From Megasphaera elsdenii DSM 20460 (GTDB lineage Bacteria > Bacillota > Negativicutes > Veillonellales > Megasphaeraceae): a stretch of DNA of 32,000 bases. The stretch's first letter is position 1, and every line of letters begins with the position of its first letter. The notes under the pieces are model-generated. The model worked only from the letters and a program-made list of their open reading frames with translations. It made no database searches and was not told where the DNA came from. Shown here piece by piece: positions 1,880 to 21,861 of this stretch. Location: NCBI RefSeq assembly GCF_003010495.1, contig NZ_CP027570.1, forward strand, positions 2,070,001 through 2,102,000. The letters are read 5' to 3'. Both the position numbers and the translations under genes were made by a program.

Positions 1880-1886
1880 AAAGCGT

Positions 1887-2070: not shown

Positions 2071-2083
2071 GGCCCGCAGGGCC

Positions 2084-3379: not shown

Positions 3380-3391
3380 GGGAAGGCCTCC

Positions 3392-4660
3392 TCATTCTTT
3401 GATGTCTAAGTTGAATACATTCCGCAGTTCACGGACGACCCGGTCTTCATCGGGCGTGTTGGCCGCTTCGACGGTGCGCCGCAGGGGAGCGCGCAGGATT
3501 TTGCGGACCAGGATGTGGGATAAGTTCTCGACGACGCGGAACTGGTCGTCTGTCAGTTCGGGCAGTTTGTTGCGCGCCCGCTTGACGAAATGGCGCCGCG
3601 TCCGTTCGGCCTGCTGGGACAGGCTAAGGACGACGGGGCGGACGGACAGGTATTGATAGCGTTCAATCATGGTGTCCACGGCTTCGTCGACGATATAGCT
3701 GGCGGCAATGGCTTCGCGCTGACGCGTCGCTTCGTTATCGTGGACGACTTCCTGCAGGTCGTCGATGTTATATAAGGTCACGCCGGGAATCTGGGTGATT
3801 GCCGGGTCGGCGTCGCGCGGGACGGCGATGTCGATGATCAGCAGGGGCCGCCCTTGGCGCAGTTCCTGGAAACGCTGCAGCCGCGGGACGGTGATGACAT
3901 AGTGCGGTGCGCCAGTCGAGGCGATGATGATGTCGACATCGGAAACGACGGACTGGACTTCTTTATAGTGGACGGCCTGGCCGCCGACGTCCGCCGCCAG
4001 TTCCTGGGCCCGATCCAGATGGCGGTTGACGATGTACAGTTTCCCGGCACCTTTGCCTAAGAAATTCTGGGCTGTCAGGCGGGCCATCTGGCCGGCGCCG
4101 TAGAGCAGGAGGTTCCGGCCAGAGAGGGAGCCCAGGCTTTTTTCGGCCATCTGGACAGCGGTATAGCTGACGGATACGGCATTGTAGGCAATGTGCGTTT
4201 CCGTCCGGACCCGTTTGCCTGTGGCGATGGCCTGCTGGAAGAGCATGTTGAGGATGGCACTGGTCGCACCGTTTTCATGGGCCATGACGTAGGCCTGTTT
4301 GACCTGACTGAGTATCTGACCTTCGCCGAGGACCAGTGAGTCCAGGCTGGCGGCGACGGTGAACAGGTGGTGGATGCAGGCTTTCCCCGTATAGCTGTAG
4401 AAATACGCCGGGTCATAAGCCGGGCGGCCGGCCAGGTCGAGGAAGAAGTCGCGCAGGGCCTGTTCGTTGTCCCGGATGTCGTCGACGACAGCGTAGACTT
4501 CGGACCGGTTACATGTCGACAGGACGACGGCTTCGCGCAGGCCGCCGTAATCGTCGAGGTGCTGCAGGCCCTGGTGGATGGCGTCCGGCGTCATAGTGAA
4601 GCGTTCCCGGATGGCGACGGGGACGGTCTTATGGTTGAGGCCAAGGATGACGAGGTCCAT
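3392..4660 (-). CDS. hemA: Glutamyl-tRNA reductase
   Basis: MDLVILGLNHKTVPVAIRE... and the catalytic-Cys motif LSTCNRSEVY. I prefer ATG 4660, 2 nt after the hemB stop, over the track start at 4693, which would overlap hemB. The start is uncertain by 33 nt. Confidence 0.92.
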   Translation of the reverse strand: MDLVILGLNHKTVPVAIRERFTMTPDAIHQGLQHLDDYGGLREAVVLSTCNRSEVYAVVDDIRDNEQALRDFFLDLAGRPAYDPAYFYSYTGKACIHHLFTVAASLDSLVLGEGQILSQVKQAYVMAHENGATSAILNMLFQQAIATGKRVRTETHIAYNAVSVSYTAVQMAEKSLGSLSGRNLLLYGAGQMARLTAQNFLGKGAGKLYIVNRHLDRAQELAADVGGQAVHYKEVQSVVSDVDIIIASTGAPHYVITVPRLQRFQELRQGRPLLIIDIAVPRDADPAITQIPGVTLYNIDDLQEVVHDNEATRQREAIAASYIVDEAVDTMIERYQYLSVRPVVLSLSQQAERTRRHFVKRARNKLPELTDDQFRVVENLSHILVRKILRAPLRRTVEAANTPDEDRVVRELRNVFNLDIKE

Positions 4661-4662
4661 CG

Positions 4663-5652
4663 TTAGGCCTCGACTTCGTCGTTCTTCAGCCACTTAGCGA
4701 CGTCGACGGCGTGGTAGGTGATGATGATGTCCGCACCGGCGCGCTTCATGCTGGTCAATTCTTCCATGACGATGCGCTTTTCGTCGATCCAGCCATTGCG
4801 GGCAGCCGCTTTGACCATGGCGTATTCGCCGCTGACGTTGTACGTGGCAATGGGCCGCTGGCAGCGCTGGCGGGCCTGGTAGACGATGTCCAGGTAGGAC
4901 AGGGCCGGCTTGACCATGATGATGTCGGCGCCTTCTTCCAGGTCGAGGTCGATTTCCTTCATGGCTTCGCGGCCGTTGGCCGGGTCCATCTGATACTGGC
5001 GGCGGTCGCCGAAGTGCGGTGCCGAATCGGCGGCGTCGCGGAAGGGACCGTAGAAGCCGGAGGCATATTTGGCGGCATAGGACATGATGATGGTGTTGAT
5101 GAAGCCTTCTTCATCCAAGGCCTGGCGGATGGAGGCGATGTGGCCGTCCATCATGTCCGACGGGGCGACGATGTCGGCACCGGCTTCGGCCTGACTGACG
5201 GCGACTTTGTTGAGCAGTTTCAGCGTGGCGTCGTTATCGACGTAGTGGTCTTTGATCTGGCCGCAGTGACCGTGGTCGGTGTACTGGCAGAGGCAGACGT
5301 CACCGACGATGACCATGTCCGGCAGGGCTTTCTTGATGGCCCGGATGGCGCACTGGACCGGGCTTTGCGGGTCCCAGGCGCTGGAACCGATTTCGTCTTT
5401 GTAAGCCGGCAGGCCGAAGACTTCGATGGCCCGCAGCCCTAAGGCATAGATGTCTTCGGCCAGGCGGACGGCGTTGTCTACGGACAGGTGATAACAGCCG
5501 GGCATGCTGGGGATTTCTTCTTTGACATTCGTGCCGGGGACGACGAAGATAGGGTAAATCAAATCGTTGAGGCATACATGGTTTTCCCGGACCATAGCGC
5601 GCAGGGGAGCGGAAAGGCGCAGGCGGCGGGGGCGTAAGGTATTCAATTTCAT
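4663..5652 (-). CDS. hemB: Porphobilinogen synthase (delta-aminolevulinate dehydratase), Zn-type
   Basis: Cys-rich metal site GDVCLCQYTDHGHCG and active-site lysine context IIMVKPAL. The likely start is MKLNTLRPRRLR at 5652, forming an ATGA overlap with the cobA/hemD stop. The track start at 5682 is an upstream extension. Confidence 0.94.
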   Translation of the reverse strand: MKLNTLRPRRLRLSAPLRAMVRENHVCLNDLIYPIFVVPGTNVKEEIPSMPGCYHLSVDNAVRLAEDIYALGLRAIEVFGLPAYKDEIGSSAWDPQSPVQCAIRAIKKALPDMVIVGDVCLCQYTDHGHCGQIKDHYVDNDATLKLLNKVAVSQAEAGADIVAPSDMMDGHIASIRQALDEEGFINTIIMSYAAKYASGFYGPFRDAADSAPHFGDRRQYQMDPANGREAMKEIDLDLEEGADIIMVKPALSYLDIVYQARQRCQRPIATYNVSGEYAMVKAAARNGWIDEKRIVMEELTSMKRAGADIIITYHAVDVAKWLKNDEVEA

Positions 5653-7169
5653 GACTGTTTGATTCTCCAATCTGTAATACATTCAGCCAGGCCGGCAATG
5701 GTGTAGGTCTGGGCTGTCACTATTTTTTTCAGGCCCGCTTCCTGACAGGTACGGGCCGTGATGGGGCCGATGCAGGCGAAGGTGATATCATCCAGGTCGC
5801 TGGCCTGGGCCTGGCTCAGGGAGAGGAAACTGCGGACGGCTGACGAGCTGGTGACGGTCACGACGTCGATGGTCTGGCGGGCCAGGAGGTCTTTCAGGAC
5901 GGCGCCGTTTTCGCTGGCTTCGACGGTGCAATAGGCCTGGCAGACATCGACGACGGCGCCCCAGCGGCGCAGTGTGTCGGGCAGGACCGACCGGGCTTCT
6001 TTGGCCCTGGGGATGAGGATGCGTTCTTTGCCGGAAAGGTGCGGCTCCAGGGCGGCGGCCAGGTCTTCGGCACAGTAGGCGCCGGGGACGACGTCAGCCT
6101 GGAGGCCGTAAGCTGTCAGGGCCTTGGCCGTGGCACTGCCGATAGCGGCCAGTTTGGCCCGGCCCAGGGCACGGCTGTCGCGGCCGTGATGCTGGAGACG
6201 GCGGAAAAAGGCATCGACGCCGTTGGTGCTGGTGAAGATGACCCAGTCGTAATGTTCCAGGTCCGCTATGGCAGTATCCAGCGCCTGGTAGCCGTCTGTC
6301 GGCGGCGTGATGCGGATGGTCGGCACTTCCAGGCAGCGGGCACCCAGTTCTTCCAGGCGATGTGTCAGGTCCGGCGCCTGGGCGTGGGTCCGGGTGACGG
6401 CGATGGTCAGGCCGAAGAGGGGCTTCGTGTCGAACCACTGCATGGACGGCCGCAGGGCGACGACGTCGCCGACGATGAAGACGGCCGGTGCCTTGAAATG
6501 GCAGGCCGCCGCTTTTTCGGCGATATCTCCGACCGTAGCCACCAGCGTTTCCTGGTCGGCCTTGGTGCCCCAGCGGACCAGGGCTGCCGGCGTCGTCGCA
6601 GGACGGCCGTGGGCGACGAGCTGCTGGGTGATGGATGGCAGGTTGTGGACGCCCATGAGGAAGACCAGCGTATCGACGGCCGTTGCCAGTTTGTCCCAGT
6701 GAATCGATGACTGGCCTTTGGTCGGGTCTTCGTGACCTGTGACGACGGCAAAGGACGAAGCCGCCGTCCGGTCGGTCACGGGGATACCGGCATAGGCCGG
6801 GGCGCCGATGGCCGACGTGACGCCTGGGATGATTTCAAAGGGCAGGCCCGCGTCGTGGAGCGCCCGGCTTTCTTCGCCGCCGCGGCCGAAGACGAAGGGG
6901 TCGCCGCCTTTGAGACGGACGACAATCTTGCCTTCTTTGGCTTTGGCAATGAGCAGGTCGATGATTTTGTCTTGGGACAAGGTGTGGTCGGCCGCTTTTT
7001 TGCCGACATATATTTTTTCCGCTGTTGGCGGAGCAAATTCTAGAAGGCGCGGATCGGCCAGATAGTCGTAGATGACGACATCGGCCCGTTCCAGGACCTC
7101 CCGGCCCCGCAGGGTGAGCAGGCGGTAGTCGCCGGGACCGGCGCCAGTGAGATAAACGATACCGTTCAT
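5649..7169 (-). CDS. cobA: Bifunctional uroporphyrinogen-III C-methyltransferase / uroporphyrinogen-III synthase
   Basis: The N-terminal half carries the SUMT motif VYLTGAGPGD...VVRLKGGDPFVFGRGGEE. The C-terminal roughly 250 aa is HemD-like. The same fusion architecture is known from Selenomonas and clostridial CobA/HemD. Confidence 0.9.
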   Translation of the reverse strand: MNGIVYLTGAGPGDYRLLTLRGREVLERADVVIYDYLADPRLLEFAPPTAEKIYVGKKAADHTLSQDKIIDLLIAKAKEGKIVVRLKGGDPFVFGRGGEESRALHDAGLPFEIIPGVTSAIGAPAYAGIPVTDRTAASSFAVVTGHEDPTKGQSSIHWDKLATAVDTLVFLMGVHNLPSITQQLVAHGRPATTPAALVRWGTKADQETLVATVGDIAEKAAACHFKAPAVFIVGDVVALRPSMQWFDTKPLFGLTIAVTRTHAQAPDLTHRLEELGARCLEVPTIRITPPTDGYQALDTAIADLEHYDWVIFTSTNGVDAFFRRLQHHGRDSRALGRAKLAAIGSATAKALTAYGLQADVVPGAYCAEDLAAALEPHLSGKERILIPRAKEARSVLPDTLRRWGAVVDVCQAYCTVEASENGAVLKDLLARQTIDVVTVTSSSAVRSFLSLSQAQASDLDDITFACIGPITARTCQEAGLKKIVTAQTYTIAGLAECITDWRIKQS

Positions 7170-7182
7170 AGAGAGAACCTCC

Positions 7183-8118
7183 TTAATAGGTCGGGATGAT
7201 GCCCAAATCAGTGAGGATGCGGCGGCCGCCGTCGTCGAGGAGTGTGCAGGCGGCCTCGTGGCCGATGGCGGCGCTGTCCGCCGCGGAGCCGCGTGTCGTC
7301 GTGCGGCAGACCTGGCTGCCGTCGGGAGCGGCGATGATGCTCTGCAGCGTCAGGATGCCGTCCTGGACGGTGCCGTAGACGCCGACCGGGACCTGGCAGC
7401 TGCCGTTGATGGCGGCCAGAAAGGTCCGTTCGGCCGTCGTCGCAGCGGCGGTGCCTTCGTCATTGAGGAAGGCCAGGGCCTGTTTCAACGATTCGTCGTC
7501 TGCGCGGGTTTCGATGGCCAGGGCGCCCTGGCCGACGGCGGGAATCATCGTATCGACGGGCAGGAGCTGTGTGATGCGGTCGGCCCGGCCCAGGCGCTGC
7601 AGACCGGCTTCGGCCAGGATGATGGCGTCGTATTGGCCGTCGTCGAGCTTCTTCAGGCGCGTGTCGACGTTGCCCCGCAGATCGGCGACGAACAGGTCAG
7701 GCCGGGTGTGGAGGAGCTGGGCCTTGCGGCGCAGGCTCGACGTGCCGATACGGGCACCGGCCGGCAGGGCTTCCAGGGACGCATAGGTATTGGAAACGAA
7801 GGCGTCGTGGACATGGTGGCGGGCCGTAATGGCTGCCAGGCAGAGGCCGTCCGGGACGTCCGCCGGCAGGTCCTTCAGACTGTGGACGGCCAGGTCGATG
7901 GTGCCGTCCAGGAGGCGTTGTTCCAGTTCTGTCGTGAACAGACCTTTGCCGCCGATGCGGGCCAAAGGGACATCGAGGATTTTGTCGCCTTGCGTGACGA
8001 TGTGCTGGAGCTGGACGGTCAGTTCCGGGTCGTGCCGGCGCAGGGCTTCGGCGACGTAGTTGGCCTGCCACAGGGCCAGCTGGCTGCGCCGCGTACCGAT
8101 AGTCAGATTACGTTTCAT
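7183..8118 (-). CDS. hemC: Hydroxymethylbilane synthase (porphobilinogen deaminase)
   Basis: LTIGTRRSQLALWQANYV... and ...GNVDTRLKKLDDGQYDAIILAEAGLQRLG... are canonical HemC motifs. Confidence 0.95.
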   Translation of the reverse strand: MKRNLTIGTRRSQLALWQANYVAEALRRHDPELTVQLQHIVTQGDKILDVPLARIGGKGLFTTELEQRLLDGTIDLAVHSLKDLPADVPDGLCLAAITARHHVHDAFVSNTYASLEALPAGARIGTSSLRRKAQLLHTRPDLFVADLRGNVDTRLKKLDDGQYDAIILAEAGLQRLGRADRITQLLPVDTMIPAVGQGALAIETRADDESLKQALAFLNDEGTAAATTAERTFLAAINGSCQVPVGVYGTVQDGILTLQSIIAAPDGSQVCRTTTRGSAADSAAIGHEAACTLLDDGGRRILTDLGIIPTY

Positions 8119-8755
8119 GGTTTTTCCTTTCCCAGGCGGCCAGCCGCTTCCGGAGGAGGGAGCTGGCGGCGTCGATTTCGTTGTTTTCTACCAGGTCCAT
8201 GACGTCATCGGTCAGGGCCTGGCGCCAGAAGGCCTGGCGGTCCCGGCTGGTCGCGAGGAGGGCCTGGCCCTCTTTGCGGATAGCGGCCAGTTCAGCCATC
8301 CAGCGGCCATAGCGTTCGTCGAAGTGCTGTTCCAAGTGCTTCCGGAGCCAGCGCGAAAAGGCCGGCGCCTTGCCGTTGGTGGAGATGGTGAGCTGCAGGT
8401 CGCCCTGGCGGACGATGGAGGGCAGGGTGAAGTTGCACAGGTCCGGGACGTCACAGACATTGAGCAGTTTCCCCTGGGCTTTGGCAGCAGCTGAAACGGC
8501 TTGGCTGACGGCCTCGTCATCGGTGGCGCAGATGATGAGGAAGAAGGTGGTTTCATCGCCAGGCTGATAGGTCCGCCTTTGCCAGGACAGTTGATGTTCT
8601 TCGGCCAGAATCTGCAAAGCTGGTGTCAAGGCCGGTGCAATGACCGTTACGACGGCCCCTTCATCGAGGAGACGCCGGACCTTGCGTTCGGCGACGCTGC
8701 CGCCGCCGAGGACCAGACAGGCCTGACCGGTAAGATCGAGGTTAATAGGATACAT
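8108..8755 (-). CDS. sirC: Precorrin-2 dehydrogenase / sirohydrochlorin ferrochelatase family protein (CysG N-terminal-domain like)
   Basis: 215 aa with N-terminal Rossmann motif LVLGGGSVAERKVRRLL, as in SirC/Met8p/CysG-N. First gene of the hem operon, overlapping hemC by 11 nt. Confidence 0.82.
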   Translation of the reverse strand: MYPINLDLTGQACLVLGGGSVAERKVRRLLDEGAVVTVIAPALTPALQILAEEHQLSWQRRTYQPGDETTFFLIICATDDEAVSQAVSAAAKAQGKLLNVCDVPDLCNFTLPSIVRQGDLQLTISTNGKAPAFSRWLRKHLEQHFDERYGRWMAELAAIRKEGQALLATSRDRQAFWRQALTDDVMDLVENNEIDAASSLLRKRLAAWERKNHET

Positions 8756-8843
8756 AAACGGAACTCCCTTTCAAAGTTGTACGCCTTCTATTATACCATT
8801 ATAAGAGGAAAAAGCTGTAGTAAATACAACAAATTTCTGAGTG

Positions 8844-8879
8844 AAAAAGAGGCTGTCTTTGTGTGACAGCCTCTTTTTC
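8844..8879. terminator. Bidirectional terminator-like hairpin (ends the flavodoxin-gene transcript upstream of the hem operon)
   Basis: AAAAAGAGGCTGTC-TTTGTGT-GACAGCCTCTTTTT: a perfect 10-bp stem with A- and T-tracts on either side. Confidence 0.6.
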
Positions 8880-8881: not shown

Positions 8882-8909
8882 GTATTAAGTTTGCAGTTTG
8901 TAGTAACTT
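8882..8909 (+). repeat. Heptad-phased array
   Basis: GTATTAA GTTTGCA GTTTGTA GTAACTT (four GT-phased heptamers). Confidence 0.5.
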
Positions 8910-8993
8910 CATGCCAACAACTATGAAAAGCAACCTCTCAGTCAGCATCGCTGACAGCTCTCCTATGAGGAGAGCCAGTGGGTTACGAGAGCA

Positions 8994-9018
8994 GGCCGCC
9001 CTTTGGGACGGCCCCTAC
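8994..9018 (-). repeat. GTAGGGG + GC hairpin module (REP-like)
   Basis: The plus strand reads GGCCGCCC-TTTG-GGACGGCC-CCTAC. The minus strand reads GTAGGGGCCGTCCCAAAGGGCGGCC, 22 nt downstream of the flavodoxin-gene stop. A second CCCTACGA lies at 9030-9037. Confidence 0.65.
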
Positions 9019-9040
9019 GATTTCTTATCCCTACGAGTCC

Positions 9041-9604
9041 TTAGCGGATGAAGTTGGTCATGATCTTCGCTTCTGTTGCCGGGGCTTCGATGCCTGCTTT
9101 TTTGCCGGCTTCGATGCATTTCAGGATCCAGGCCATGTTGCGGCCGAGGGTCCGCATGATCTGCAGGCCTTCTTCATCTTTCTTGACGTCCTCCGGCGTA
9201 TTGCCGTGGACCATGGGCCAGTAGTTGGAAGCGACGCTGACCATCTGATGGTAGGACAAGTATTTGTTGAGGACGTCCAGCGTGGCTGTCGTGCCGGCAC
9301 GGCGGGCCGAGGTGACGGTAGCGCCGACTTTATGGGTCAGGGCAGCACCGGCTTTACCAGCCAGTTTATCCATGAAGGAGATGATTTCACCAGACGGCGA
9401 AGCCCAGTAGACCGGCGAGCCGATGACCAGGCCGTCGGCGGTCTTCATTTTTTCGGCGACAGCGTCGACGATGGCGTCATCGGGAAGGGCATGGACGATT
9501 TCTGCATCGATGCCGTTTTCTTTGAGCGTATCGGCGACGACAGACAGTGCTGTATAGGTGCAGCCTTTTTCGCGGCGGCTGCCATTCAATAAGATAACTT
9601 TCAT
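9041..9604 (-). CDS. Flavodoxin-family / NAD(P)H-dependent FMN reductase-like protein
   Basis: MKVILLNGSRREKGCTY...DGLVIGSPVYWASPSGE... is typical of multimeric flavodoxin/FMN-reductase-fold proteins. ATG 9604 lies 6 nt downstream of the RBS GGAGGG; the track start at 9628 is an extension. Confidence 0.8.
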   Translation of the reverse strand: MKVILLNGSRREKGCTYTALSVVADTLKENGIDAEIVHALPDDAIVDAVAEKMKTADGLVIGSPVYWASPSGEIISFMDKLAGKAGAALTHKVGATVTSARRAGTTATLDVLNKYLSYHQMVSVASNYWPMVHGNTPEDVKKDEEGLQIMRTLGRNMAWILKCIEAGKKAGIEAPATEAKIMTNFIR

Positions 9605-9635: not shown

Positions 9636-9674
9636 TGATAATAGTTGTCATAACTAATAAGACAGCTATTATCA
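9636..9674. promoter_or_regulatory. 14-bp inverted repeat (candidate operator or 5'-UTR hairpin) upstream of the flavodoxin gene
   Basis: TGATAATAGTTGTC (9636-9649), 11 nt, GACAGCTATTATCA (9661-9674). There is one mismatch, and the site begins about 30 nt upstream of the start codon at 9604. Confidence 0.35.
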
Positions 9675-9755
9675 GTTTGAAGTTAAAAGTTTGATGTTTG
9701 ATGTAGATGGAATTTAAAGGCCCTTACGTCAAACTTCATACGTCAAACTTCAAAC
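9675..9755. repeat. Inverted pair of heptad-phased arrays around an AT-rich core
   Basis: Plus-strand heptads GTTTGAA GTTAAAA GTTTGAT GTTTGAT GTAGATG lie at 9675-9709. The core GAATTTAAAGG lies at 9710-9720. Minus-strand heptads GTTTGAA GTTTGAC GTATGAA GTTTGAC GTAAGGG lie at 9755-9721. Confidence 0.75.
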
Positions 9756-9773
9756 ACTAAAAATAAAGAAAAA

Positions 9774-9799
9774 TGTATGATGACAGAAGCCTTCATACA
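9774..9799. repeat. CATGA...CCTTCRTG hairpin module, copy B
   Basis: TGTATGATGACAGAAGCCTTCATACA, flanked by an A-rich tract (9761-9773) and TCTTTTG (9804-9810). Confidence 0.5.
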
Positions 9800-9980
9800 A
9801 TAATCTTTTGCAAAAATACTATAGCACAGAAAGGGCAAAAAAGCAAATACGCAGGCTGCTGTTCGTGGTTCGCAAAACCAGCCGCTAACCGCTAACGGCT
9901 GATTTTTCCTTATACGCATAGCGCAGCCTATTTTTATGATATAAAAGTATCGAAGTATAAAATTTAAAATGATATTTTTA

Positions 9981-10060: not shown

Positions 10061-11620
10061 ATGAATACCATTACGCCTATGGATTCGGCGAACCAGGAAG
10101 TGTGGATCGGCGTCGACGTCGGTACGACTGGCGTCCGGGCCATTGCTTATACGGAAGACGGGACCAATGTCTGCTCGTCGGAAGCTTTTTATCCTTTGTT
10201 GACACCCCATCCGGATTGGGCCGAAGAAAGCCCGCTCCAGATCCTGGAAGCCGTCCAGGAAGTCATCAGTAAGACGGCCGCTCAGCTTCGCTATAAGAAC
10301 AAGGAGCTGGCCGGCATCGCCCTGAGCACGGTCATGCACAGTTTCGCCGGCCTCGACGAAGGCAAAGAACCCCTCATGGACATGCAGACCTGGGCTGACA
10401 GCCGCAGCGCGTCTATTGTCCGGGAAATGAAGAAAGACGAAGGCTTGTGCCGGTCTTTCTATGAACGGACGGGCTGCCCCATCCACGCCTGCTATCCCCT
10501 GGCCAAAATCATCTGGCTGCGCCAGAACCAGCCGGAACTCTTCCGCCAGATGCGCTATGTCGGATCATTGAAAGATTATTTGTTCTATCACTTGACGGGC
10601 CAATGGGTCATCGACAAGTCCGCAGCCAGCACGAGCGGCATGTACAACGAACGGACCTTGGATTGGGATGATGAAATCCTGGCCTATGCCGGTGTCACTA
10701 AAGACCAGCTGCCGCCTGTCGTATCGACGACGTACAGCCAGGGTTTGTGTGAAGACGCTGCCAAGATTTTGCGCCTGCCGGCCGGCCTTCCCGTCGTCAT
10801 CGGCGCTACGGATGGCGTCCTGGTCAACGTCGGCATCGGTGCCGTCGAACCGGGCCAGCTCAGCGGGACCATCGGGACCAGCGGCGCCCTGCGCATGCTG
10901 ACCCGCCAGCCCAAGACGGACCCGCAGATGCGCACGTGGTGCTATAACCTGACCGACGACATGTGGGTCGCCGGCGGAGCCATCAACAACGGCGGCATGA
11001 TCCTGCGCTGGGTCCGCGACAAAATCTGCCATTACGGCGGCAGTGCCCTGGAAACGCTGGACATCGACCCCTATGACTTGATGACCATGAAGGCAGAACA
11101 CGTCGATGCCGGCGCCGACGGTCTCATCTGCCTGCCGTATTTTACGGGCGAACGGGCGCCATACTGGAACTCGGAACTGCGGGGCATGTTCTTCGGCTTT
11201 TCCCTCAATCACAGCCGGTCCCACATGATCCGCGCCGTCATGGAAGGCATCTGCTACAGCCTAAACAGCGTCATGGCAGCTCTCAAGGAATTTGGCGACA
11301 TCAAGGACATCCGCGTCAGCGGCAGCTTCACCAAGTCGAAACTGTGGCTCCAGATTTTATCGGACGTCCTCAATCAGCCCATCACCCTGCCGGACAACAG
11401 TGAAGGCGCTGCTTTCGGGGCGGCCGTGCTGGGATTCATTTCCAGCGGCAAATTGAAGAGCATCGCCGATACGGCCGACTTGGTCCACGCCAAGAAAATC
11501 TATACGCCTATCGAAGAAAACGTAGCCGTCTACCAGCAGCTCTACGACATCTTCGTCCAGCTCTACCATAACTTGCAGGGAGAATTTGCCGACATTACGG
11601 CATACCAGCAGAAATTATAA
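10061..11620 (+). CDS. gntK: Gluconokinase (FGGY carbohydrate kinase family)
   Basis: 519 aa. N-terminal FGGY phosphate-1 motif IGVDVGTTGVRAIAY, and C-terminal FGGY domain ...GGAINNGG... and ...YFTGERAPYWN.... It sits beside the gnd and GntP genes. RBS AAAGGGAG lies 8 nt upstream. Confidence 0.88.
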   Translation: MNTITPMDSANQEVWIGVDVGTTGVRAIAYTEDGTNVCSSEAFYPLLTPHPDWAEESPLQILEAVQEVISKTAAQLRYKNKELAGIALSTVMHSFAGLDEGKEPLMDMQTWADSRSASIVREMKKDEGLCRSFYERTGCPIHACYPLAKIIWLRQNQPELFRQMRYVGSLKDYLFYHLTGQWVIDKSAASTSGMYNERTLDWDDEILAYAGVTKDQLPPVVSTTYSQGLCEDAAKILRLPAGLPVVIGATDGVLVNVGIGAVEPGQLSGTIGTSGALRMLTRQPKTDPQMRTWCYNLTDDMWVAGGAINNGGMILRWVRDKICHYGGSALETLDIDPYDLMTMKAEHVDAGADGLICLPYFTGERAPYWNSELRGMFFGFSLNHSRSHMIRAVMEGICYSLNSVMAALKEFGDIKDIRVSGSFTKSKLWLQILSDVLNQPITLPDNSEGAAFGAAVLGFISSGKLKSIADTADLVHAKKIYTPIEENVAVYQQLYDIFVQLYHNLQGEFADITAYQQKL

Positions 11621-11645
11621 TTTCCAGTGAAAAGGAGAGATACCT

Positions 11646-13058
11646 ATGGCACTTCACGATATTGGCGTCGTCGGCATGGCCGTCATGGGCAGTAACCTGG
11701 CCCTGAACATGGCCGACCACGGCTACGACGTTTCGGTCTACAACTATACGCCGGATTTGACGGAACAGTTCCTCAAGGAACGGCCCCATGACAAGATTAC
11801 GGGCTACTTCGAGCTGAAGGATTTCCTGGCTTCCCTGAAGCGGCCGCGCAAAATCATGCTCATGATCATGGCCGGTGCGCCTGTGGACAGCATGCTCGAC
11901 CAGCTGCTGCCCCTCCTGGATACAGGTGACATCATCATCGACGGCGGCAACTCCTATTTCGGCGATACGCGCCGCCGCTACGACCGCTGCAAAGAAGACG
12001 GCATCCATTTCTATGGCATGGGCATTTCGGGCGGGGAAACGGGCGCCCGCCGCGGTCCGGCCATCATGCCGGGCGGCAATAAGGAAACGTATCCTGAAAT
12101 CCAGCCCATTTACGAAGCCATTGCGGCCAAAGCGGCTGATGGCAAGCCGTGCTGCACTTATATCGGCGAAGACGGCGCCGGCCATTACGTCAAGATGGTC
12201 CACAACGGCATCGAATACGCCGATATGCAGCTCATCGCCGAAGCTTATTTATTGCTCAAACACGTCGGCGGTTACGATAACGCCGCCATTTCTAAGATTT
12301 TCCATGAATGGAACCAGGGCGAACTGAAGAGCTTCCTCATCGGTATCGCCGCGGATATTTTTGCCGAAGACGACGAAGCAGGCGGACAGGTCCTGGATAA
12401 GATCGTAGACGCCGCCGGTCAGAAGGGGACCGGCCGCTGGACGAGCATCGAATCGATGAAACAGGGTGTCGATATTTCCATGATTACGGCAGCCTGCAAT
12501 GCCCGCGTCATGTCCAACGCACCAGGCCGTGCCAAAGCGCAGGATGTCATTGCCAAGCCGGCCCTGACGGCCCAGAGCGGCCCGGACTTCGTCGAAGCCG
12601 TCCGCCAGAGCCTGTATGCGGCCAAGATCGTCGCCTATGCCCAGGGCTTTTCCCTCTACAAGAGTGCTTCGGAAACGTATGACTGGCACCTCGATTACGG
12701 CGCCATCGCTTCCATTTTCCGGGCCGGCTGCATCATCCAGGCCGAATTTCTGACCAAGATCACCGAAGCCTATGACAAGAATCCGGAGCTGGATAATCTC
12801 TTGTTCGACGATTTCTTCCTGGCTAAAATCAATGCCAACCAGGGCGCCCTGCGGCAGATCATCGGCCTGGCCATTGCCAACGGCCTTCCCATTCCGGCCT
12901 TCTCGGCTTCGCTCCAATACCTCGACGCCTACAGCAGCCCTCAGGTCGGAGCCAACCTCATCCAGGCCCTGCGCGACTATTTCGGCGCCCATACGTTCCA
13001 GCGCGTCGATAAAGCCGGCACCTTCCATCACCATTGGCATGAACATTATACAAAATAA
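11646..13058 (+). CDS. gnd: 6-phosphogluconate dehydrogenase, decarboxylating
   Basis: IGVVGMAVMGSNLALNMADHGY (Rossmann motif), GISGGETGARRGPAIMPGG, and GAGHYVKMVHNGIEYADMQLIAEAY are canonical Gnd motifs. Confidence 0.95.
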   Translation: MALHDIGVVGMAVMGSNLALNMADHGYDVSVYNYTPDLTEQFLKERPHDKITGYFELKDFLASLKRPRKIMLMIMAGAPVDSMLDQLLPLLDTGDIIIDGGNSYFGDTRRRYDRCKEDGIHFYGMGISGGETGARRGPAIMPGGNKETYPEIQPIYEAIAAKAADGKPCCTYIGEDGAGHYVKMVHNGIEYADMQLIAEAYLLLKHVGGYDNAAISKIFHEWNQGELKSFLIGIAADIFAEDDEAGGQVLDKIVDAAGQKGTGRWTSIESMKQGVDISMITAACNARVMSNAPGRAKAQDVIAKPALTAQSGPDFVEAVRQSLYAAKIVAYAQGFSLYKSASETYDWHLDYGAIASIFRAGCIIQAEFLTKITEAYDKNPELDNLLFDDFFLAKINANQGALRQIIGLAIANGLPIPAFSASLQYLDAYSSPQVGANLIQALRDYFGAHTFQRVDKAGTFHHHWHEHYTK

Positions 13059-13073
13059 AGGAGGTTTCTCATT

Positions 13074-14393
13074 ATGCCACTCGTCATACTCGCTATTGGC
13101 ATTCTCGTCTTATTTTTCCTCATCGTCAAAGTCAAGCTCAACAGTTTCTTGGCTTTGCTCCTCGTCGCCGGCGCCGTCGGCCTGGCCGAAGGCATGCCTA
13201 TCGACAAGCTCATCCCGACCATTGAAAAAGGGCTGGGCGGGACCCTCGGCGGCCTGGCCATCGTCGTTTCCTTCGGCGCCATGCTGGGCAAGCTCATGGC
13301 TGAAAGCGGCGGTGCCCAGCGCATTGCGACGACACTGATCAACGTCTTCGGCCGGGAAAAGGTCAAATGGGCCGTCTGCCTGACGGGCTTCATCGTCGGT
13401 ATCGCCTTGTTCTATGAAATCGGCTTCGTCCTGCTCATCCCCTTGGTCTTCACCATTGCGGCGGAAGCCAAGATTCCCCTGCTGGAAGTCGGTATCCCTA
13501 TGGCTGCGGCCTTGTCGGTCACGCACGGCTTCCTGCCGCCTCATCCGGGCCCGACAGCGATTTCCATCATTTATAATGCCGATATCGGCACGACCCTGGT
13601 CTATGGTGCCATCATCGCCATCCCGACGGCCATCGTCGCCGGCCCGCTGTACTGCACGCTGACGCGGGACATCAATCCGGAAATCCCCAAGGGCATGTAC
13701 AACCCGAAAATCTTTAAGGACGACGAAATGCCTGGCTTTGGTATTTCCGTCTTCACGGCGCTGGTCCCGGTCATCCTCATGGCTGCTTCGGCTATTGCCA
13801 AATTGACCATGGGTGCCGATGTCCCGGCCCGCCATATCCTGACCTTCTTCGGTCAGCCGGACATTGCCCTGACCATTTCCGTCGCCATCGCTATCTATAC
13901 CTTCGGCCTGGGCCGGGGCAAATCCATGGAAGATGTCATGAAGACCGTCCAGGATGCCGTCCTGACCATTGCCATGATCTTGCTCATCGTCGGCGGTGGC
14001 GGTGCCTTGAAACAGGTCCTCATCGACAGCGGTGTCGGCACGTACATCGGTAATCTCGTCGCTGGTTCCGATTTATCGCCGCTGCTCCTGGCCTGGCTGG
14101 TCGCTGCCGTCATCCGCACGGCCTGCGGTTCGGCTACGGTAGCAGCCCTGACGGCTGGCGGTATTGCCGCCCCTATCTGCGCCGTCACCGGTGCCAATCC
14201 GGAACTGATGGTCCTGGCTACGGGCGCCGGTTCGCTCATCTTCAGCCCGCCGAATGACCCTGGTTTCTGGCTGTTCAAGGAATTTTTCGGCCTGACGGTC
14301 AAACAGACCGTCCGCACGTGGTGCGCCCTGGAAACAATCATTGCCGTCATGGGTTTAGCTGGTGTACTTGTTTTGAATCTCTTTGTAGGCTAA
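13074..14393 (+). CDS. Gluconate:H+ symporter (GntP family permease)
   Basis: 439-aa polytopic membrane protein. N-terminus MPLVILAIGILVLFFLIVKVKLNSFLALL... and overall pattern are typical of the GntP family. It lies within the gnt operon. Confidence 0.88.
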   Translation: MPLVILAIGILVLFFLIVKVKLNSFLALLLVAGAVGLAEGMPIDKLIPTIEKGLGGTLGGLAIVVSFGAMLGKLMAESGGAQRIATTLINVFGREKVKWAVCLTGFIVGIALFYEIGFVLLIPLVFTIAAEAKIPLLEVGIPMAAALSVTHGFLPPHPGPTAISIIYNADIGTTLVYGAIIAIPTAIVAGPLYCTLTRDINPEIPKGMYNPKIFKDDEMPGFGISVFTALVPVILMAASAIAKLTMGADVPARHILTFFGQPDIALTISVAIAIYTFGLGRGKSMEDVMKTVQDAVLTIAMILLIVGGGGALKQVLIDSGVGTYIGNLVAGSDLSPLLLAWLVAAVIRTACGSATVAALTAGGIAAPICAVTGANPELMVLATGAGSLIFSPPNDPGFWLFKEFFGLTVKQTVRTWCALETIIAVMGLAGVLVLNLFVG

Positions 14394-14427
14394 AATAAAA
14401 GTGAATATGAAAGTAGGAGGGAAGACG

Positions 14428-15285
14428 ATGGAAGAAATGAAGCTCCAGGTATTTCCTGTCCTGCGCAGTGCATACGGCGGTCTGACCAAGTCAGAGCGCC
14501 GTATTGCCGATTATATTGTCGATCATCCCGGCGAGGTCATGGAAGAGACCGTAGCGGACCTGGCCGTTCATGCGCAGAGTTCGGAAATCACCATTTCCCG
14601 GTTTTGCAAGAAATTGGGCTGCAGCGGGTTGAAGGAATTGAAGCTCATGCTGGCTGCCGATTTGTCGGCAGCGCCGCAGAAGGACTTCCACGATATCCAG
14701 GCCGGCGATACGGGCCGCCAGGTGGCGTCCAAGGTTTTTGCCAATATCGCCGAAGGTTTGCAGGATACGCTGAGCCTCCTCGATTATGATGCCGTCGATG
14801 AAGCGGCCCGGCTCATCTTGAAGGCCCGGCGGATTTATGTCTTTGGCTTCGGCAATTCGGCGACAGTCTGCATGGATATGGCCACGCGGTTCCTGCGCCT
14901 GGGCCTGGCCATCCGGGAATATGCCGATTCCCATATGCAGGTGACGGCAGCGGCGCTCATGACGCCAGCAGATGTCGTCCTGGCCGTGTCCCACAGCGGG
15001 GCGACGAAGGAACTGCTCCAGTCCGTCCGGGCTGCCAAGGCGGCCGGCGGCAAGGTCATCGTCATCACCAGCCACGGCCAGTCGCCTTTGGCCGGGGAAG
15101 CCGATGTCTGCCTGTGCGGCATGGGCCGTGAAGTCCAGTATACGTCGGAAGCCGGGGCATCGCGCCTGATTCACATGGCCATCGGCGACGTCCTCTATAC
15201 GCGGATCGCCATGCAGGAAGAAGGCCTTTTCCGGGACAATATAAAGAAGATGCGCCAGGAAATCGGCAAGAAGCGGCAGTTATAA
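14428..15285 (+). CDS. MurR/RpiR-family transcriptional regulator (HTH + SIS domain)
   Basis: N-terminal HTH_6 region ...LTKSERRIADYIVDHP...AQSSEITISRFCKKLGCSGLKELK and a C-terminal SIS domain (VFGFGNSA...SHSGATKE). I prefer ATG 14428, 7 nt after RBS AGGAGG, over the track's GTG 14401. Confidence 0.85.
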   Translation: MEEMKLQVFPVLRSAYGGLTKSERRIADYIVDHPGEVMEETVADLAVHAQSSEITISRFCKKLGCSGLKELKLMLAADLSAAPQKDFHDIQAGDTGRQVASKVFANIAEGLQDTLSLLDYDAVDEAARLILKARRIYVFGFGNSATVCMDMATRFLRLGLAIREYADSHMQVTAAALMTPADVVLAVSHSGATKELLQSVRAAKAAGGKVIVITSHGQSPLAGEADVCLCGMGREVQYTSEAGASRLIHMAIGDVLYTRIAMQEEGLFRDNIKKMRQEIGKKRQL

Positions 15286-15438
15286 TCGCGGCTACGAAAA
15301 TCGGCAGTTCTGTGGTACAATAAAGACGACTTATCCGGGACAATATAAAGAAGATGCGCCAGGAAATCGGCAAGAAGCGGCAGTTATAATCGCGGCTACG
15401 AAAATCGGCAGTTCTGTGGTACAATAAAGACGACTTAT
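15231..15438 (+). repeat. Perfect 104-bp tandem duplication (2 copies: 15231-15334 and 15335-15438)
   Basis: Base-by-base comparison shows two identical 104-nt units. Each contains the last 55 nt of the rpiR-family gene (including TAA) plus 49 nt of downstream spacer. The track's minus-strand ORFs repeat the peptide SRLYCTTELPIFVAAIITAASCRFPGASSLYCPG twice. Confidence 0.92.
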
Positions 15439-15465: not shown

Positions 15466-16230
15466 GTGAAAAAATTCTTGGAAATGGCGACTATCGTCGA
15501 GAATGAAGCCATTATTCCCGAAGTCTGGAAAATGGTATTCCATGCGCCGCAAATCGCAAGAGAAGCGCGGCCCGGTCAGTTTGTCAATGTCCACCGCGAT
15601 GGGGGACAGACCTTTTTACGCCGTCCTTTCGGCATCGTCGATGCCGATACGGAATCGGGCAATGTGACTATTATTTACCGCCTGGTCGGCGTCGGTACGG
15701 CCGAAATGAAGACCTTGCGCCAGGGCGATGCACTCAGCGTCGAAGGCCCGTTAGGGGAAGGCGTCTTTACGACGACACCGGGCAAGGTCCTGCTGGCTGG
15801 CGGCGGCGTCGGCCTGGCACCGCTCATCTTCTTGGCCAAGCGCCTGGACCATCCCGTCGTGCTCGTCGCCGGAAAGACGGCAGCCGAAACGTTCTGGACG
15901 AAGTTCTTTGAACCCTATGCCGGCCGGATCTACGTGACGACTGACGACGGCTCGCAGGGCATCAAAGGCTTTGCCGTCGATGCGCTGCCGCAGATTTTTG
16001 CCAATCAGCCCATCGACCGCGTATCGGTCTGCGGCCCGACGGTCATGATGAAGACCATTGCCCAGGCTTCGGCCAAGGCCGGCATCGCCTGTGAAGTATC
16101 TATGGAAAAACGGATGGCCTGCGGCATCGGCGTCTGCCTGGGCTGCACCTTTGAAAGCCAGCTCGACGGCAAGCGCTATAAAGTCTGTGCCGACGGTCCT
16201 GTTTTTGACGCGAAGGAGGTCTTTGCATGA
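15466..16230 (+). CDS. pyrK: Dihydroorotate dehydrogenase (class 1B) electron-transfer subunit
   Basis: FAD/NAD-binding ferredoxin-reductase fold ([23 protein letters not shown]) and a C-terminal 2Fe-2S motif [11 protein letters not shown]...CADGPVF. The start is GTG 15466 or ATG 15484. An ATGA overlap links it to pyrD. Confidence 0.9.
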
Positions 16231-17150
16231 TCAGCGAACGGATTGCCGTCCAATTCGCCGGGATTTCCATGAAGACACCGGTCATGGGAGCCTCGGGAAC
16301 CTTTGGGTTCGGCGTAGAATACAGTGATTTTCTCGACCTCGACCACGTCGGGGCCATCATTTCCAAAGGCATCACGCCGCTGCCGCGGCCGGGAAATCCC
16401 GGTGTCCGCGTCGCCGAAACGCCGGCAGGGATGCTCAACTGCATCGGCCTGGAAAATCCGGGCGTAGCAGTCTTTAAGCGGGACATCCTGCCCAAGGTCC
16501 GTAAGGCCTGCCAGACGCCGCTCATCGTCAATATTTCGGCCGGTACTGCCGAAGAGTACGGCGAATTGGCAGCCCAGCTCGACGTCGATGGTGTGGCCGC
16601 CCTGGAAGTCAATATTTCCTGCCCCAATGTCAAAGAAGGGGGCATCGTCTTCGGGACCCAGCCGGAAGCGGCCGCTGCAGTCACGCGCAGCGTCAAGGAC
16701 CATACGAAGAAACCGGTCATCGTCAAGTTGTCGCCGAACGTCACGGATATTACGGTCATGGCTAAAGCCGTCGAAGCGGCTGGTGCCGACGCCGTATCGC
16801 TCATCAATACCCTGACGGGCATGGCCATCGACATCAAGAGCCGCCGCCCCCTGTTGGGCAACATCACAGGCGGCCTGTCCGGCCCGGCTGTGAAACCCAT
16901 TGCCCTGCGCATGGTATGGCAGACGGCTCAGGCCGTATCCATCCCCATCCTCGGCCTGGGCGGTATCACGACTTGGCAGGACGCCGTCGAATTTATGCTG
17001 GCCGGTGCCAGCGCCGTCGCCGTCGGGGCCCATAACTTCGTGGACCCCAGAGCCGTAGAAACCATCGCCGAAGGCCTGGACCAGTATTGTAAGGACGAAG
17101 GCATCGAACACATCCAGGATATTGTAGGGGCATTGGAGATTCGTAGTTAG
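16227..17150 (+). CDS. pyrD: Dihydroorotate dehydrogenase (class 1B) catalytic subunit
   Basis: ...ASGTFGFG..., ...NCIGLENPG..., ...EVNISCPNV... and ...[16 protein letters not shown]... are canonical PyrD-1B motifs. Confidence 0.95.
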
Positions 17151-17189
17151 TGGTTCGTGGTTTGTAGGGGCCGTCCCAAGGGGCGCCCC
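17143..17189 (+). repeat. Heptad array running into a GTAGGGG + GC hairpin module
   Basis: GTAGTTA GTGGTTC GTGGTTT GTAGGGG (17143-17170) followed by CCGTCCC-AAG-GGGCGCCCC. The pyrD stop codon TAG (17148-17150) spans the boundary between the first and second heptads. Confidence 0.65.
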
Positions 17190-17256
17190 GTTGTGGGAAT
17201 CCCATTCACGAACCCGTCGGGTATATGTAAGACTCCCGTGACCCATTGTCATGAGC

Positions 17257-17283
17257 GGGCCGCCCTCCGGGACGGCCCCTACA
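17257..17283 (-). repeat. GTAGGGG + GC hairpin module (REP-like), inverted relative to 17164-17189
   Basis: The plus strand reads GGGCCGCCC-TCC-GGGACGGCCC-CTACA. The minus strand reads TGTAGGGGCCGTCCCGGAGGGCGGCCC. Confidence 0.65.
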
Positions 17284-17284
17284 G

Positions 17285-17321: not shown

Positions 17322-17323
17322 TA

Positions 17324-21844: not shown

Positions 21845-21861
21845 AGCATCCTCCTTGTATG

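Follow-up and report, generated by a model that had tools for sequence, protein, structure and literature searches.

The window analysed here is a stretch of 32,000 nucleotides (nt) from Megasphaera elsdenii DSM 20460 (contig NZ_CP027570.1, positions 2,070,001 to 2,102,000), and the subject is the tandem arrays of 7-nt units (heptads) in its intergenic spacers, with the array at 9675-9709 as the focal one. These arrays are degenerate heptanucleotide simple-sequence tracts, which form the arms of hairpin-bounded, multicopy and strain-variable intergenic elements. The arms gain and lose whole heptads. Judged from the sequences compared, the element family appears to be specific to the M. elsdenii clade. 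We consider it probable that the tracts are the arms of modular, palindromic, dispersed elements, that slippage drives their evolution, that the elements are non-autonomous, and that any effect on the cell is incidental; the descriptive part of this reading is much firmer than the functional part. The elements are lettered A to F along the window, and comparison sequences carry L numbers.

The period-7 signal in the window

A sequence-only reading of the window had quoted ten heptad arrays, and their letters, coordinates and strands proved to be exact; the degenerate run that it placed at 9858-9899 is also present. The arrays at 146 and 1921 differ by one heptamer (GTGCAAC), as direct reading of the two strings confirms. 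A strict rule (at least four GT at period 7, both strands) gave eight runs in the window, all in intergenic DNA, which start at 146, 1921, 8882, 9675 and 17143 on the plus strand and at 361, 2070 and 9755 on the minus strand. Other periods within 3-12 gave only 0-2 such runs each. For comparison, 300 dinucleotide-preserving shuffles of the window gave a mean of 0.33 runs and a maximum of 3. Moreover, the same-base autocorrelation of 2546 nt of intergenic DNA reached z = 4.8, 5.0 and 4.5 at lags 7, 14 and 21, while |z| stayed below 2.4 at all other lags above 3. Tandem Repeats Finder (TRF) reported short period-7 arrays in the window at 2054, 9689, 9729, 9882 and 17140, and a period-14 array at 9725-9752.

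The arrays at 21901 and 21974 fail the strict GT rule, having GC and GA units. They are nevertheless real family members: the segment 21884-21923 has an 88% inverted copy at 28016-28055. The statement that each locus uses its own heptamer type was too strong, because the loci fall into three shared families. The GTGGTTC/GTTTGCC family comprises loci 146, 361, 1921, 2070 and 17143; the GTTTGAN family comprises 8882, 9675, 9755 and 21974; and the GTTAGNN family comprises 21901, 28016 and 9882. The claim that the leading GT is kept held in part: among the imperfect period-7 TRF arrays, which were found without reference to GT, it is the most often conserved dinucleotide, but only by plurality (16 of 53).

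Neighbouring units in the window arrays are more alike over positions 3-7 than random unit pairs, with a mean identity of 0.58 versus 0.385. Like simple sequence repeats (SSR) and variable number tandem repeats, the arrays consist of 7-nt units in head-to-tail tandem; however, the near-identity of units that marks an SSR was not found in the window, where units of one array differ at positions 3-7. Per-position substitution counts were discarded, as they are biased by the way an array is defined.

Arrays beyond the window

The sequence-only reading had left it to a wider search whether further copies exist, and matches in genomes and metagenomes of Megasphaera show that they do. A 16-nt arm motif was scanned against one genome per species. 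The motif is too short for this use, and most of its matches were single and due to chance. Even so, it was found at no fewer than 9 Megasphaera loci (at least 7 in Megasphaera sp. UMGS1114 and at least 2 in M. elsdenii MSK.21.52), and these loci carry 33 GT period-7 runs per 100 kb, as against 3.5 per 100 kb in the other genomes matched. The 20 matches of the motif in viral contigs were all single and presumably due to chance.

A longer, 23-nt arm motif gave at least 116 metagenomic loci (0.99 Mb), of which several are UMGS1114 contigs and eight or more are orthologues of the B locus of the window. The DNA of the loci listed holds 343 GT period-7 runs, in comparison with 6-42 for any other period from 4 to 12. 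In about 1 Mb of Megasphaera DNA (0.99-1.12 Mb), TRF found 367 period-7 arrays versus 49 at period 5 and 43 at period 8. The signal is also present in an unselected sample, namely 860 kb of metagenomic DNA of the Megasphaera type that lies over 600 nt away from the nearest match to a search pattern. This sample has 154 GT period-7 runs (17.9 per 100 kb); periods 5, 6, 8, 9 and 10 gave 0.7-4.3 runs per 100 kb. Arrays range from 4 up to 15 units, and include the perfect tracts (GTTTGAT)8 and (GTGGCTA)7. The unit consensus is G-T-K-K-K-T-C, with position weights at positions 3-7 of 0.89 (K), 0.79 (K), 0.73 (K), 0.57 (T) and 0.63 (C).

The arms and the elements are dispersed. The 91 copies of the 23-nt arm motif with full flanks lie in at least 37 distinct genomic contexts. 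At least 6 unrelated contexts carry nearly identical copies of an element of about 213 bp, and the similarity stops at its hairpins. Its order is a left terminator, the arm GTGGTTC GTTTGGC GTGGTTC GTTTGCC, an AT-rich core, the inverted arm and a right terminator. This element shows features of miniature inverted-repeat transposable elements (MITE): it is short and non-coding, has inverted repeats and, like the arm motif, occupies many unrelated sites. The flanks of the aligned 213-bp copies share only an A-run and a T-run, which are parts of the end terminators. Comparison of the 213-bp element with plasmid and phage collections gave no match. The D-type element has about nine paralogous loci with 74-82% identity. 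No autonomous parent element came to light: three pairs of arms lie 600-2900 nt apart, and the open reading frames (ORF) in the one inspected (L155) are not transposase-like.

The 213-bp element at L163 contains a promoter-like site, TTAACA-16-TATCAT (10/12), at 2358-2385 on the minus strand, which points through the AC-rich arm into the left terminator. The same site can be read in the copy of M. elsdenii MSK.21.52 (L082, ~3275-3340); L163 was the only copy scanned. Transcription from the L163 site would yield a candidate small RNA of ~95 nt, C/A-rich and unstructured in its 5' part and ending in an intrinsic terminator.

Heptamer arrays were also seen in other lineages. Two Desulfosporosinus species have orthologous arrays of about 12 mixed heptads (GAGGTTC, GTGGTCC, GCACTTC) at L060:4240-4330 and L090:740-830. 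These arrays keep one continuous 7-nt phase and lie directly beside a ribosome-binding site, which indicates that a constant phase with a changing unit also occurs in another Firmicutes lineage. Metagenome-assembled genomes (MAG) of other phyla carry (AGTGCGA)x8 (Acidimicrobiia, L032:1241), (GTTCAGA)x4 (Blastocatellia, L036:5379) and several (AAGTCGA)n arrays (Phycisphaerae, L095:3010-3140 and 4700-4830). Such arrays fit the general excess of heptameric repeats that has been reported.

Architecture and polarity of the elements

The elements have a recurring order: an outer hairpin, a GT-phased array, a core, an inverted array and a second hairpin. The outer hairpin is of two types. The first, which is the more frequent, is a bidirectional intrinsic terminator, with an A-run, GGGCTGTCGC-loop-GCGACAGCCC and a T-run (1884-1923, 8843-8879, 17283-17322 and 21861-21896). 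The second is a short GGCGCC-TGC-GGCGCC hairpin that abuts a stop codon (131-145 and 2071-2085), and this form bounds arrays at other loci as well. The second hairpin of an element is often of the GCATGAYGGCAGAAGCCTTCRTGC type (366-420, 9774-9800 and 21980-22036). The core often contains a module similar to repetitive extragenic palindromic (REP) sequences. In A and B this core module consists of GGATTCGCGC and a GC stem-loop with CCCCTAC at its end, and a further copy is found downstream of array C.

Arrays were said to come usually in inverted pairs, and this habit was borne out more strictly than claimed. Among neighbouring arrays less than 400 nt apart, 101 of 116 pairs are convergent (the GT strand comes first and reads toward the centre) and none is divergent. 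The ratio is 55:0 after removal of duplicates, and 26:0 after removal of the arms that carry the search motif. The convergent pairs in the window are 146/361, 1921/2070, 9675/9755 and 21901/21974. Half of 196 context-unique arrays start no more than 6 nt from a T-run, and 39% have a strong hairpin with a T-run directly before the array. Accordingly, the arrays usually stand just beyond an intrinsic terminator. The arrangement is symmetrical, and therefore the order of terminator before array holds for transcription from either side.

In element A, the GC hairpin GGCGCCTGCGGCGCC at 131-145 (-10.4 kcal/mol), directly after the pfk stop codon, is the outer boundary. The left arm at 146-180 (GTTTGGC GTGCAAC GTGATTC GTTTGCC GTGGCTG, plus strand) pairs with the right arm at 327-361 (GTTTACC GTGGGTC GTGGTTC GTTTGCC GTAATAA, minus strand), and the fold has z = -5.5. 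The core at 259-296 is the REP-like module GGATTCGCGC-GGGCCTCC-loop-GGAGGCCC-CTAC, with GTAG on the minus strand (repeat family D10; -18.3 kcal/mol). The GCATGAYGGCAGAAGCCTTCRTGC-type hairpin at 366-420 (-19.5 kcal/mol) closes A on the right, and the same type ends the 213-bp element.

Element B starts with a bidirectional terminator at 1884-1923 (A-run, GCTGTCGC...GCGGCAGC, T-run; 18 pairs, -21.9 kcal/mol), which stands right before the left arm at 1921-1948 (GTGGTTC GTTTGGC GTGATTC GTTTGCC, plus strand). This arm contains the 23-nt motif. The core at 1978-2010 on the minus strand is a truncated REP-like module (CACAGGATTCGCTCGGGCGCCCCTAC) with a 94% match to 255-272, and its hairpin is present at full length in orthologues such as L156. 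The right arm at 2036-2070 (GTGGTTC GTGGTTC GTGAGTC GTAGACC GTGGATT, minus strand) has 5-7 units between strains (L156, L162, L197, L257), the arm-closed stem has z = -6.0, and the GC hairpin GGCCCGCAGGGCC at 2071-2085 (-9.1 kcal/mol) bounds B beside the hemL stop. Element C has a single, unpaired array at 8882-8909 (GTATTAA GTTTGCA GTTTGTA GTAACTT, plus strand). A bidirectional terminator at 8843-8879 with a self-complementary match (-24.2 kcal/mol) precedes this array, and a REP-like hairpin on the minus strand (8985-9020; repeat family D10), which ends in CCCCTAC, follows it.

Element D occupies a polymorphic segment of 166 nt at 9637-9802, with breaks at 9636/9803 according to alignment and BLAST. 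It consists of an AT-rich hairpin (9637-9674), a heptad palindrome and a weak terminator hairpin. Folded as DNA, the whole segment forms three hairpins with z = -7.05. The left arm at 9675-9709 (GTTTGAA GTTAAAA GTTTGAT GTTTGAT GTAGATG, plus strand) is the focal array, and the right arm lies at 9721-9755 (GTTTGAA GTTTGAC GTATGAA GTTTGAC GTAAGGG, minus strand); their stem has z = -5.65. The degenerate hairpin at 9774-9800 (TGTATGATGACAGAAGCCTTCATACA) belongs to the GCATGATG...CTTCATGC family and is followed by a T-run on the minus strand. The D paralogues keep a full terminator at this place. A promoter-like site, TTGTCA-16-TATTAT (10/12), was noted at 9645-9672 on the plus strand; it falls within the AT-rich hairpin, and its end is 3 nt short of the array. 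With this site, the whole D segment looks like a cassette of promoter, hairpin and weak terminator. The degenerate run at 9858-9899 holds two CCGCTAA units (GTTAGCG type on the minus strand), and TRF gives it period 7 at 9882-9900.

Element E has the array GTAGTTA GTGGTTC GTGGTTT GTAGGGG at 17143-17170 (plus strand), and the last of these units provides the GTAG with which a REP-like hairpin begins. The hairpins at 17163-17192 and 17253-17283 form an inverted, REPIN-like doublet, with 28-nt arms that are 86% complementary and 65 nt apart. A bidirectional terminator at 17283-17322 (18 pairs, -31.1 kcal/mol) closes E. In element F, a terminator-type hairpin (GGGCTTGTCGC...) at 21861-21896 precedes the GTTAGNN arm at 21901-21935 (GTTAGTG GCTAGCA GTTAGTT GTTAGCG GATGGCT, plus strand). 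The GTTTGAN arm follows at 21947-21974 (GTTTGAG GTTTGAA GCTTGAA GAAGGCC, minus strand), and then the S20 terminator of the GCATGATGG...CTTCATGC hairpin family at 21980-22036 on the minus strand (-26.8 kcal/mol), which matches 27814-27834. The inverted second GTTAGNN arm on the minus strand at 28016-28055 (40 nt, 88%) is followed by a terminator-like hairpin.

The hairpins themselves are related to each other. Those at 372-418, 9774-9800, 21985-22030 and 27815-27862 share the loop-proximal GCATGAYG...GAARCCTTCATGC, and several other terminator-type hairpins share GCTGTCGC...GCGACAGC. The terminators of this genome thus seem to fall into a small number of families by sequence, which looks as though repeat elements had spread them as component parts. 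An alignment fold of nine D-type paralogues gave almost only invariant pairs, a register-shifted consensus and no compensatory covariation; the idea of an RNA structure under selection was set aside, as this fold was uninformative.

Arrays often end in phase as GTAGGGG or GTAAGGG and then run into a GC hairpin, as the sequence-only reading had described. The same reading dismissed the REP family and its mosaics (bacterial interspersed mosaic elements, BIME). The heptad arrays themselves are not palindromes, but the GC hairpins that they run into carry the REP signature of GTAG directly 5' of a GC-rich palindrome. Palindromes of 20-40 nt with GTAG at the 5' edge were found only at the GC hairpins 262-294, 8989-9018, 17163-17192 and 17253-17283. 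The inverted doublets and clusters known for REP sequences are represented in the window by the doublet at 17163-17283.

A cluster of REP-like hairpins was also seen inside a gene. In L199:6350-6810, within a minus-strand ORF (5481-7832), five REP-like GC hairpins (TGCGGGCCGCCCTTTGGGACGGCCCCTAC) and companion modules lie within 460 nt. The ORF codes for a MutL of 783 aa; the copies are in frame, fall in the linker that joins its DNA_mis_repair and MutL_C domains, and encode repeated 'GAVPKGGPQ' stretches. The intergenic repeat has colonised the flexible linker of this mismatch-repair protein with the reading frame intact.

Variation between strains and relatives

Polymorphism for presence or absence between strains, which had been proposed as a check, does exist. 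The window and L276 both have the D segment; in L277, with flanks that are ~99% identical, 25 unrelated nt stand in place of the 166 nt. L276 and L233 keep D, with the right arm exactly two heptads (14 nt) shorter. More distant relatives do not have the element: the D spacers of L270 (FMN reductase 84% identical) and M. cerevisiae (L272/L273) keep conserved promoter/operator blocks without the heptad palindrome. The C cassette as a whole is also absent from the L270 spacer; M. cerevisiae was compared at the D spacer only. Caecibacter, M. cerevisiae and L270 together gave ~22 kb of unique sequence, in which no GT period-7 run was found. The D element was considered as a conserved operator of the divergent promoter region between the FMN reductase and FGGY kinase genes, and this was rejected because the relatives and L277 do without D. 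The blocks that are truly conserved, and that the D-less relatives and L277 keep, are ACTATAGCACAG and an AT-rich box in front of the FGGY promoter. The degenerate run at 9858-9899 is conserved in L276 and L277 and absent in L270.

The other spacers also vary. The B spacer of L276 and L277 is a different mosaic, with GCAGTTC/GCGGTTC heptads, a GTTAGNN-type arm like that at 21901-21935, REP-like hairpins and long CACGAGT arrays, and the two B spacers differ from each other by 21 nt. The same spacer, between the ABC transporter and hemL, measures 352-385 nt in these strains (L276:11373-11724, L277:11373-11757) versus 204 nt in the window (1880-2083). It is a hotspot of intergenic replacement between flanking genes that are ~99% identical. 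In the E spacer of L004, a longer array of other heptads replaces the array of the window.

Length changes follow the unit. Within the arrays of orthologous clusters, all indels that reach 5 nt measure 7, 14 or 21 nt. The hemL-proximal arm has 5, 6 or 7 units between strains, and another locus has 12 versus 14. For example, an element shared by M. elsdenii MSK.21.52 (L082) and UMGS1114 (L096) differs by exactly three heptads (21 nt).

Interpretation and alternative explanations

The unit changes may arise by slipped-strand mispairing. Slippage is suggested by the arms themselves, because tandem heptads can pair in several registers and the alignment fold of the paralogues chose a shifted one. 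It is also suggested by the size of the unit, since heptamers are, according to the summaries in PMC4679880 and PMC4692102, the repeat size most over-represented in bacteria, for which polymerase slippage was proposed. The elements could spread as non-autonomous units, either through a mobilising activity or through recombination between shared hairpins. A physiological effect, if there is any, would be a by-product of extra stem-loops beside terminators, which might terminate transcription, insulate genes from it or strengthen the terminators. By-product effects of this kind have been proposed for REP sequences, BIME and MITE.

The sequence-only reading had offered two explanations of the constant phase, namely evolution in 7-nt units and the reading of a 7-nt register by a protein or an RNA. 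The first is supported by the indels of 7, 14 and 21 nt and by the unit counts (5-7, and 12 versus 14). The dedicated reader finds no such support, given the free turnover of units, the perfect microsatellite-like tracts and the lack of compensatory covariation in the arms. On the preferred reading, the conserved phase stems from the repeat unit itself and not from a dedicated 7-nt reader.

Several points weigh against the proposal of slippage-driven, non-autonomous elements. Slippage alone explains neither the strict GT-first polarity nor why CGT is preferred where units join. The polymorphism at D is a replacement (166 nt versus 25 nt) and no clean insertion, and for this reason mobility can only be inferred. 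The aligned 213-bp copies show no target-site duplication at their ends. A tblastn search with IS200 TnpA and Escherichia coli RAYT (REP-associated tyrosine transposase) queries, which is a weak test, gave no match in the 1.12 Mb of Megasphaera DNA probed. Finally, the arrays are invariant among 7-10 strains or MAGs that are at least 99% identical to the window. On the same observation, the idea of a hypermutable contingency locus was rejected at short range.

The elements might act at the RNA level, with stem-loops that aid termination or protect 3' ends, with small RNAs borne by the elements, or with C-rich, G-poor arms that load Rho. The stable stems formed by the arms and the adjoining intrinsic terminators agree with this, as do the promoter-like sites in the 213-bp element (aimed through the AC-rich arm at the left terminator) and 3 nt before array D. 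However, most arrays lie beyond the terminator of the neighbouring gene, and they are therefore expected to be poorly transcribed. Moreover, the D-type paralogues do not have the promoter-like site, L277 can dispense with the D element, and no compensatory covariation is seen in the arms. The sequence-only reading also asked for an Rfam check, and this gave no match at any array, either at the gathering threshold or at E <=1; the only matches in the window at E <=1 were the S-adenosylmethionine (SAM) riboswitch, a tRNA and a sub-threshold antisense match at the tRNA locus. Action through RNA is unlikely on this evidence, if slightly less so than the alternatives below.

A DNA-binding protein could read one heptad per subunit in the manner of the omega repressor, and might organise or insulate the intergenic DNA. 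The omega repressor of pSM19035 is a ribbon-helix-helix protein whose binding sites are series of 7-bp WATCACW heptads, in both direct and inverted arrangement. The strict convergent polarity (55:0) would suit such a protein, and so would the preference for G1, T2 and C7 with variable positions 3-6, the standing of GT as the most often conserved dinucleotide in arrays found independently of it, and the 14-nt super-period (lag-14 z of 5.0; TRF period 14 at 9725-9752), which fits two-heptad units. The units, however, differ widely between families (GTTTGAT, GTGGCTC, GCAGTCC, TTTGTAG, GTTAGNN), and the arrays have 4-15 units that are freely lost or replaced between ~99%-identical strains. The heptads also misfit WATCACW: the nearest, GTGATTC (AATCACG on the opposite strand), departs from it at position 7. 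The arrays have no candidate gene linked to them, and close relatives are devoid of them. A heptad-binding protein is accordingly quite unlikely.

In a REP/RAYT-type system, a Y1 (HUH) transposase would recognise the GTAG and GC hairpins, and would cut and rejoin the DNA time and again at the hairpin's 5' edge; the heptads would be the by-products of this activity, or repeats made by it that serve for recognition. The in-phase endings in GTAGGGG or GTAAGGG before a GC hairpin point in this direction. The hairpins also occur as inverted doublets and clusters of five, and their stems differ between copies with the pairing kept. On the other hand, the weak test mentioned above detected no Y1 transposase in 1.12 Mb, many arrays (for example D and the 213-bp element) have no GC hairpin, and we know of no REP system with heptad arrays. 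Such a system is improbable here.

A dedicated factor that counts off 7 nt from a hairpin, for instance an HUH/RAYT-like nuclease or a multimeric heptad-binding protein, could both build the arrays and spread the elements. The GT-first convergent polarity, the in-phase GTAG junction and the position just past hairpins lead to this proposal, to which we assign a low probability. If it were true, it would be a new mechanism for generating and mobilising repeats, and a molecular answer to the dominance of heptamers. Last, a chance or compositional artefact of GT-rich spacers, for which only the post-hoc nature of the first reading speaks, is ruled out for practical purposes by the shuffles (8 runs versus 0.33 expected, with a maximum of 3 in 300) and by the period-7 specificity, replicated in the 860 kb of unselected DNA.

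Slippage-evolved arms of non-autonomous dispersed elements thus remain the preferred reading, and the elements matter in several respects. M. elsdenii is a culturable rumen and gut organism, and 18-35 arrays per 100 kb would extrapolate, very roughly, to several hundred per genome. Given this abundance, the strict polarity, the link to terminators and REP-like hairpins and the strain polymorphism, slippage rates, effects on termination and binding partners are directly testable. Because of the elements, intergenic spacers are hypervariable, with consequences for strain typing, pan-genome analysis and assembly. The expression of neighbouring genes, such as the FMN reductase gene, the gluconate operon and the hem operon, could be altered as well.

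Gene context and other features of the window

The window is 99.99% identical to the M. elsdenii DSM 20460 chromosome sequence HE576794.1 (~2.04-2.06 Mb, reversed). The end of pfk lies at the left edge, and its stop codon directly precedes the hairpin at 131-145. The ABC transporter (508-1879, plus strand), the hem operon (2084-8755, minus strand) and the FMN reductase (9041-9604, minus strand) follow. The FGGY kinase / 6PGD / GntP / RpiR operon occupies 10061-15285 and pyrK-pyrD 15466-17150, both on the plus strand. The methionine ABC transporter (17324-19001, minus strand) lies behind the SAM riboswitch at 19089-19186. Further to the right are the genes for an M29 peptidase, a MatE pump and S20 (S20 at 22043-22318, minus strand), and a tRNA-Met at 27734. 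Look-up of a 313-aa ORF at 30259-31200 gave no record.

The SAM riboswitch is on the minus strand, scores 86 bits and has a strong promoter-like site at 19235-19207; it is an ordinary one with no tie to the arrays. Between the RpiR gene and pyrK, a unit of 104 bp is duplicated in tandem (99% identical) at 15226-15438. There are two copies in L002 (DSM 20460) and one in L001, L003 and L005-L009, as read from overlapping BLAST blocks. This duplication appears to be strain-specific and to lie in a promoter region.

Comparison with known systems

Bacterial MITE and modular repeats include Correia/CREE, BOX, RUP and ERIC. The Megasphaera elements are like them in being small, non-coding, multicopy and strain-variable, with inverted-repeat arms, an AT-rich core and a BOX-like modularity, and in that they can carry terminators or promoters. 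In contrast to MITE, the arms are tandem heptamers and not a unique terminal inverted repeat, and no target-site duplication or parent insertion sequence was identified. REP, BIME and REPIN sequences are reportedly tied to RAYT transposases, in work said to go back to Nunvar in 2010, Bertels and Rainey in 2011 and Ton-Hoang in 2012. The GC hairpins beside the arrays resemble REP sequences in being extragenic and multicopy with GTAG on the 5' side, in their inverted doublets and clusters, and in their mosaics with short motifs. The heptad arrays are unlike REP sequences, since they are not palindromic units, many heptad elements have no GC hairpin, and no RAYT gene was found by the weak test in 1.12 Mb.

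The HutP site consists of three UAGNNNN units. The arrays share contiguous 7-nt units with the omega and HutP sites, a resemblance in the possible mode of action and not in membership. Binding of the HutP type was considered for the segment 21901-21928, which reads (TAGNNNN)x4, and it was rejected because the TAG strand is antisense to both flanking minus-strand genes. Unlike HutP sites, the arrays have no hut context, and the TAG strand of the copy at 28016 is not the strand of the gene downstream but the other one.

Neither the heptad strings nor Megasphaera repeats were found in the searchable literature, where the string matches were unrelated eukaryotic primers and sequences. The sequence-only reading had recognised no named family, but the general phenomenon is already published, from Xanthomonas (PMC4692102) and Geobacter (PMC2700814) and in the form of TAACTGA repeats (PMC4679880). 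Heptanucleotides are over-represented among the long SSRs of prokaryotes, and polymerase slippage was proposed (Mrazek et al. 2007, as cited in PMC4679880 and PMC4692102). Heptamers have been noted as the most over-represented long simple repeat in bacteria since 2007, and the Megasphaera arrays bear on the old question of why the unit is seven. As far as the citing papers describe them, these SSRs resemble the Megasphaera arrays in the unit size of 7, the intergenic location and the change by whole units; the SSR work concerns near-perfect tandem repeats, whereas the Megasphaera arrays are mostly 4-6 degenerate units in inverted pairs within larger elements.

Several single systems are also known. 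The TAACTGA repeats of Beggiatoaceae lie just upstream of start codons in one orientation (PMC4679880). Geobacter metallireducens has elements of four GGGACCG or five MTYCTGA heptanucleotides, and the MTYCTGA elements are among the putative regulator binding sites and mostly occur in pairs (PMC2700814). The heptamers of Nostoc lie near promoters (bioRxiv 10.1101/2022.06.06.494920), and Calothrix heptanucleotides are a further heptamer system (cited in PMC4692102). The Megasphaera arrays share with the Beggiatoaceae, Geobacter and Nostoc systems short runs (2-6) of tandem heptamers at many intergenic sites. However, each of these systems has one fixed heptamer, whereas the Megasphaera units are degenerate and stand in convergent pairs beside terminators.

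The closest described system is that of Xanthomonas, with which the Megasphaera arrays share the convergent polarity rule and the intergenic siting. The GGGAATC heptamers of Xanthomonas, like the GGGGAYT heptamers of Nostoc, are almost only intergenic and near the end of a neighbouring ORF (Rehm et al. 2015, PMC4692102). In 70-75 cases per Xanthomonas genome, two heptamer arrays lie convergently on opposite strands; the arrays vary in length and sequence between close relatives while the locus is kept, and no function is established (PMC4692102). The Xanthomonas system uses one G-rich unit capable of forming a G-quadruplex, whereas the Megasphaera units are mixed and mostly unable to form one, as they have no GGG, and a unit of the type GGGNATC was absent from the Megasphaera unit census. 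Moreover, the Megasphaera arrays are from a different phylum, are framed by terminator and REP-like hairpins, and belong to elements of which at least one complete composite is multicopy. Robust, tidy and present in a culturable organism as it is, the phenomenon is not categorically new.

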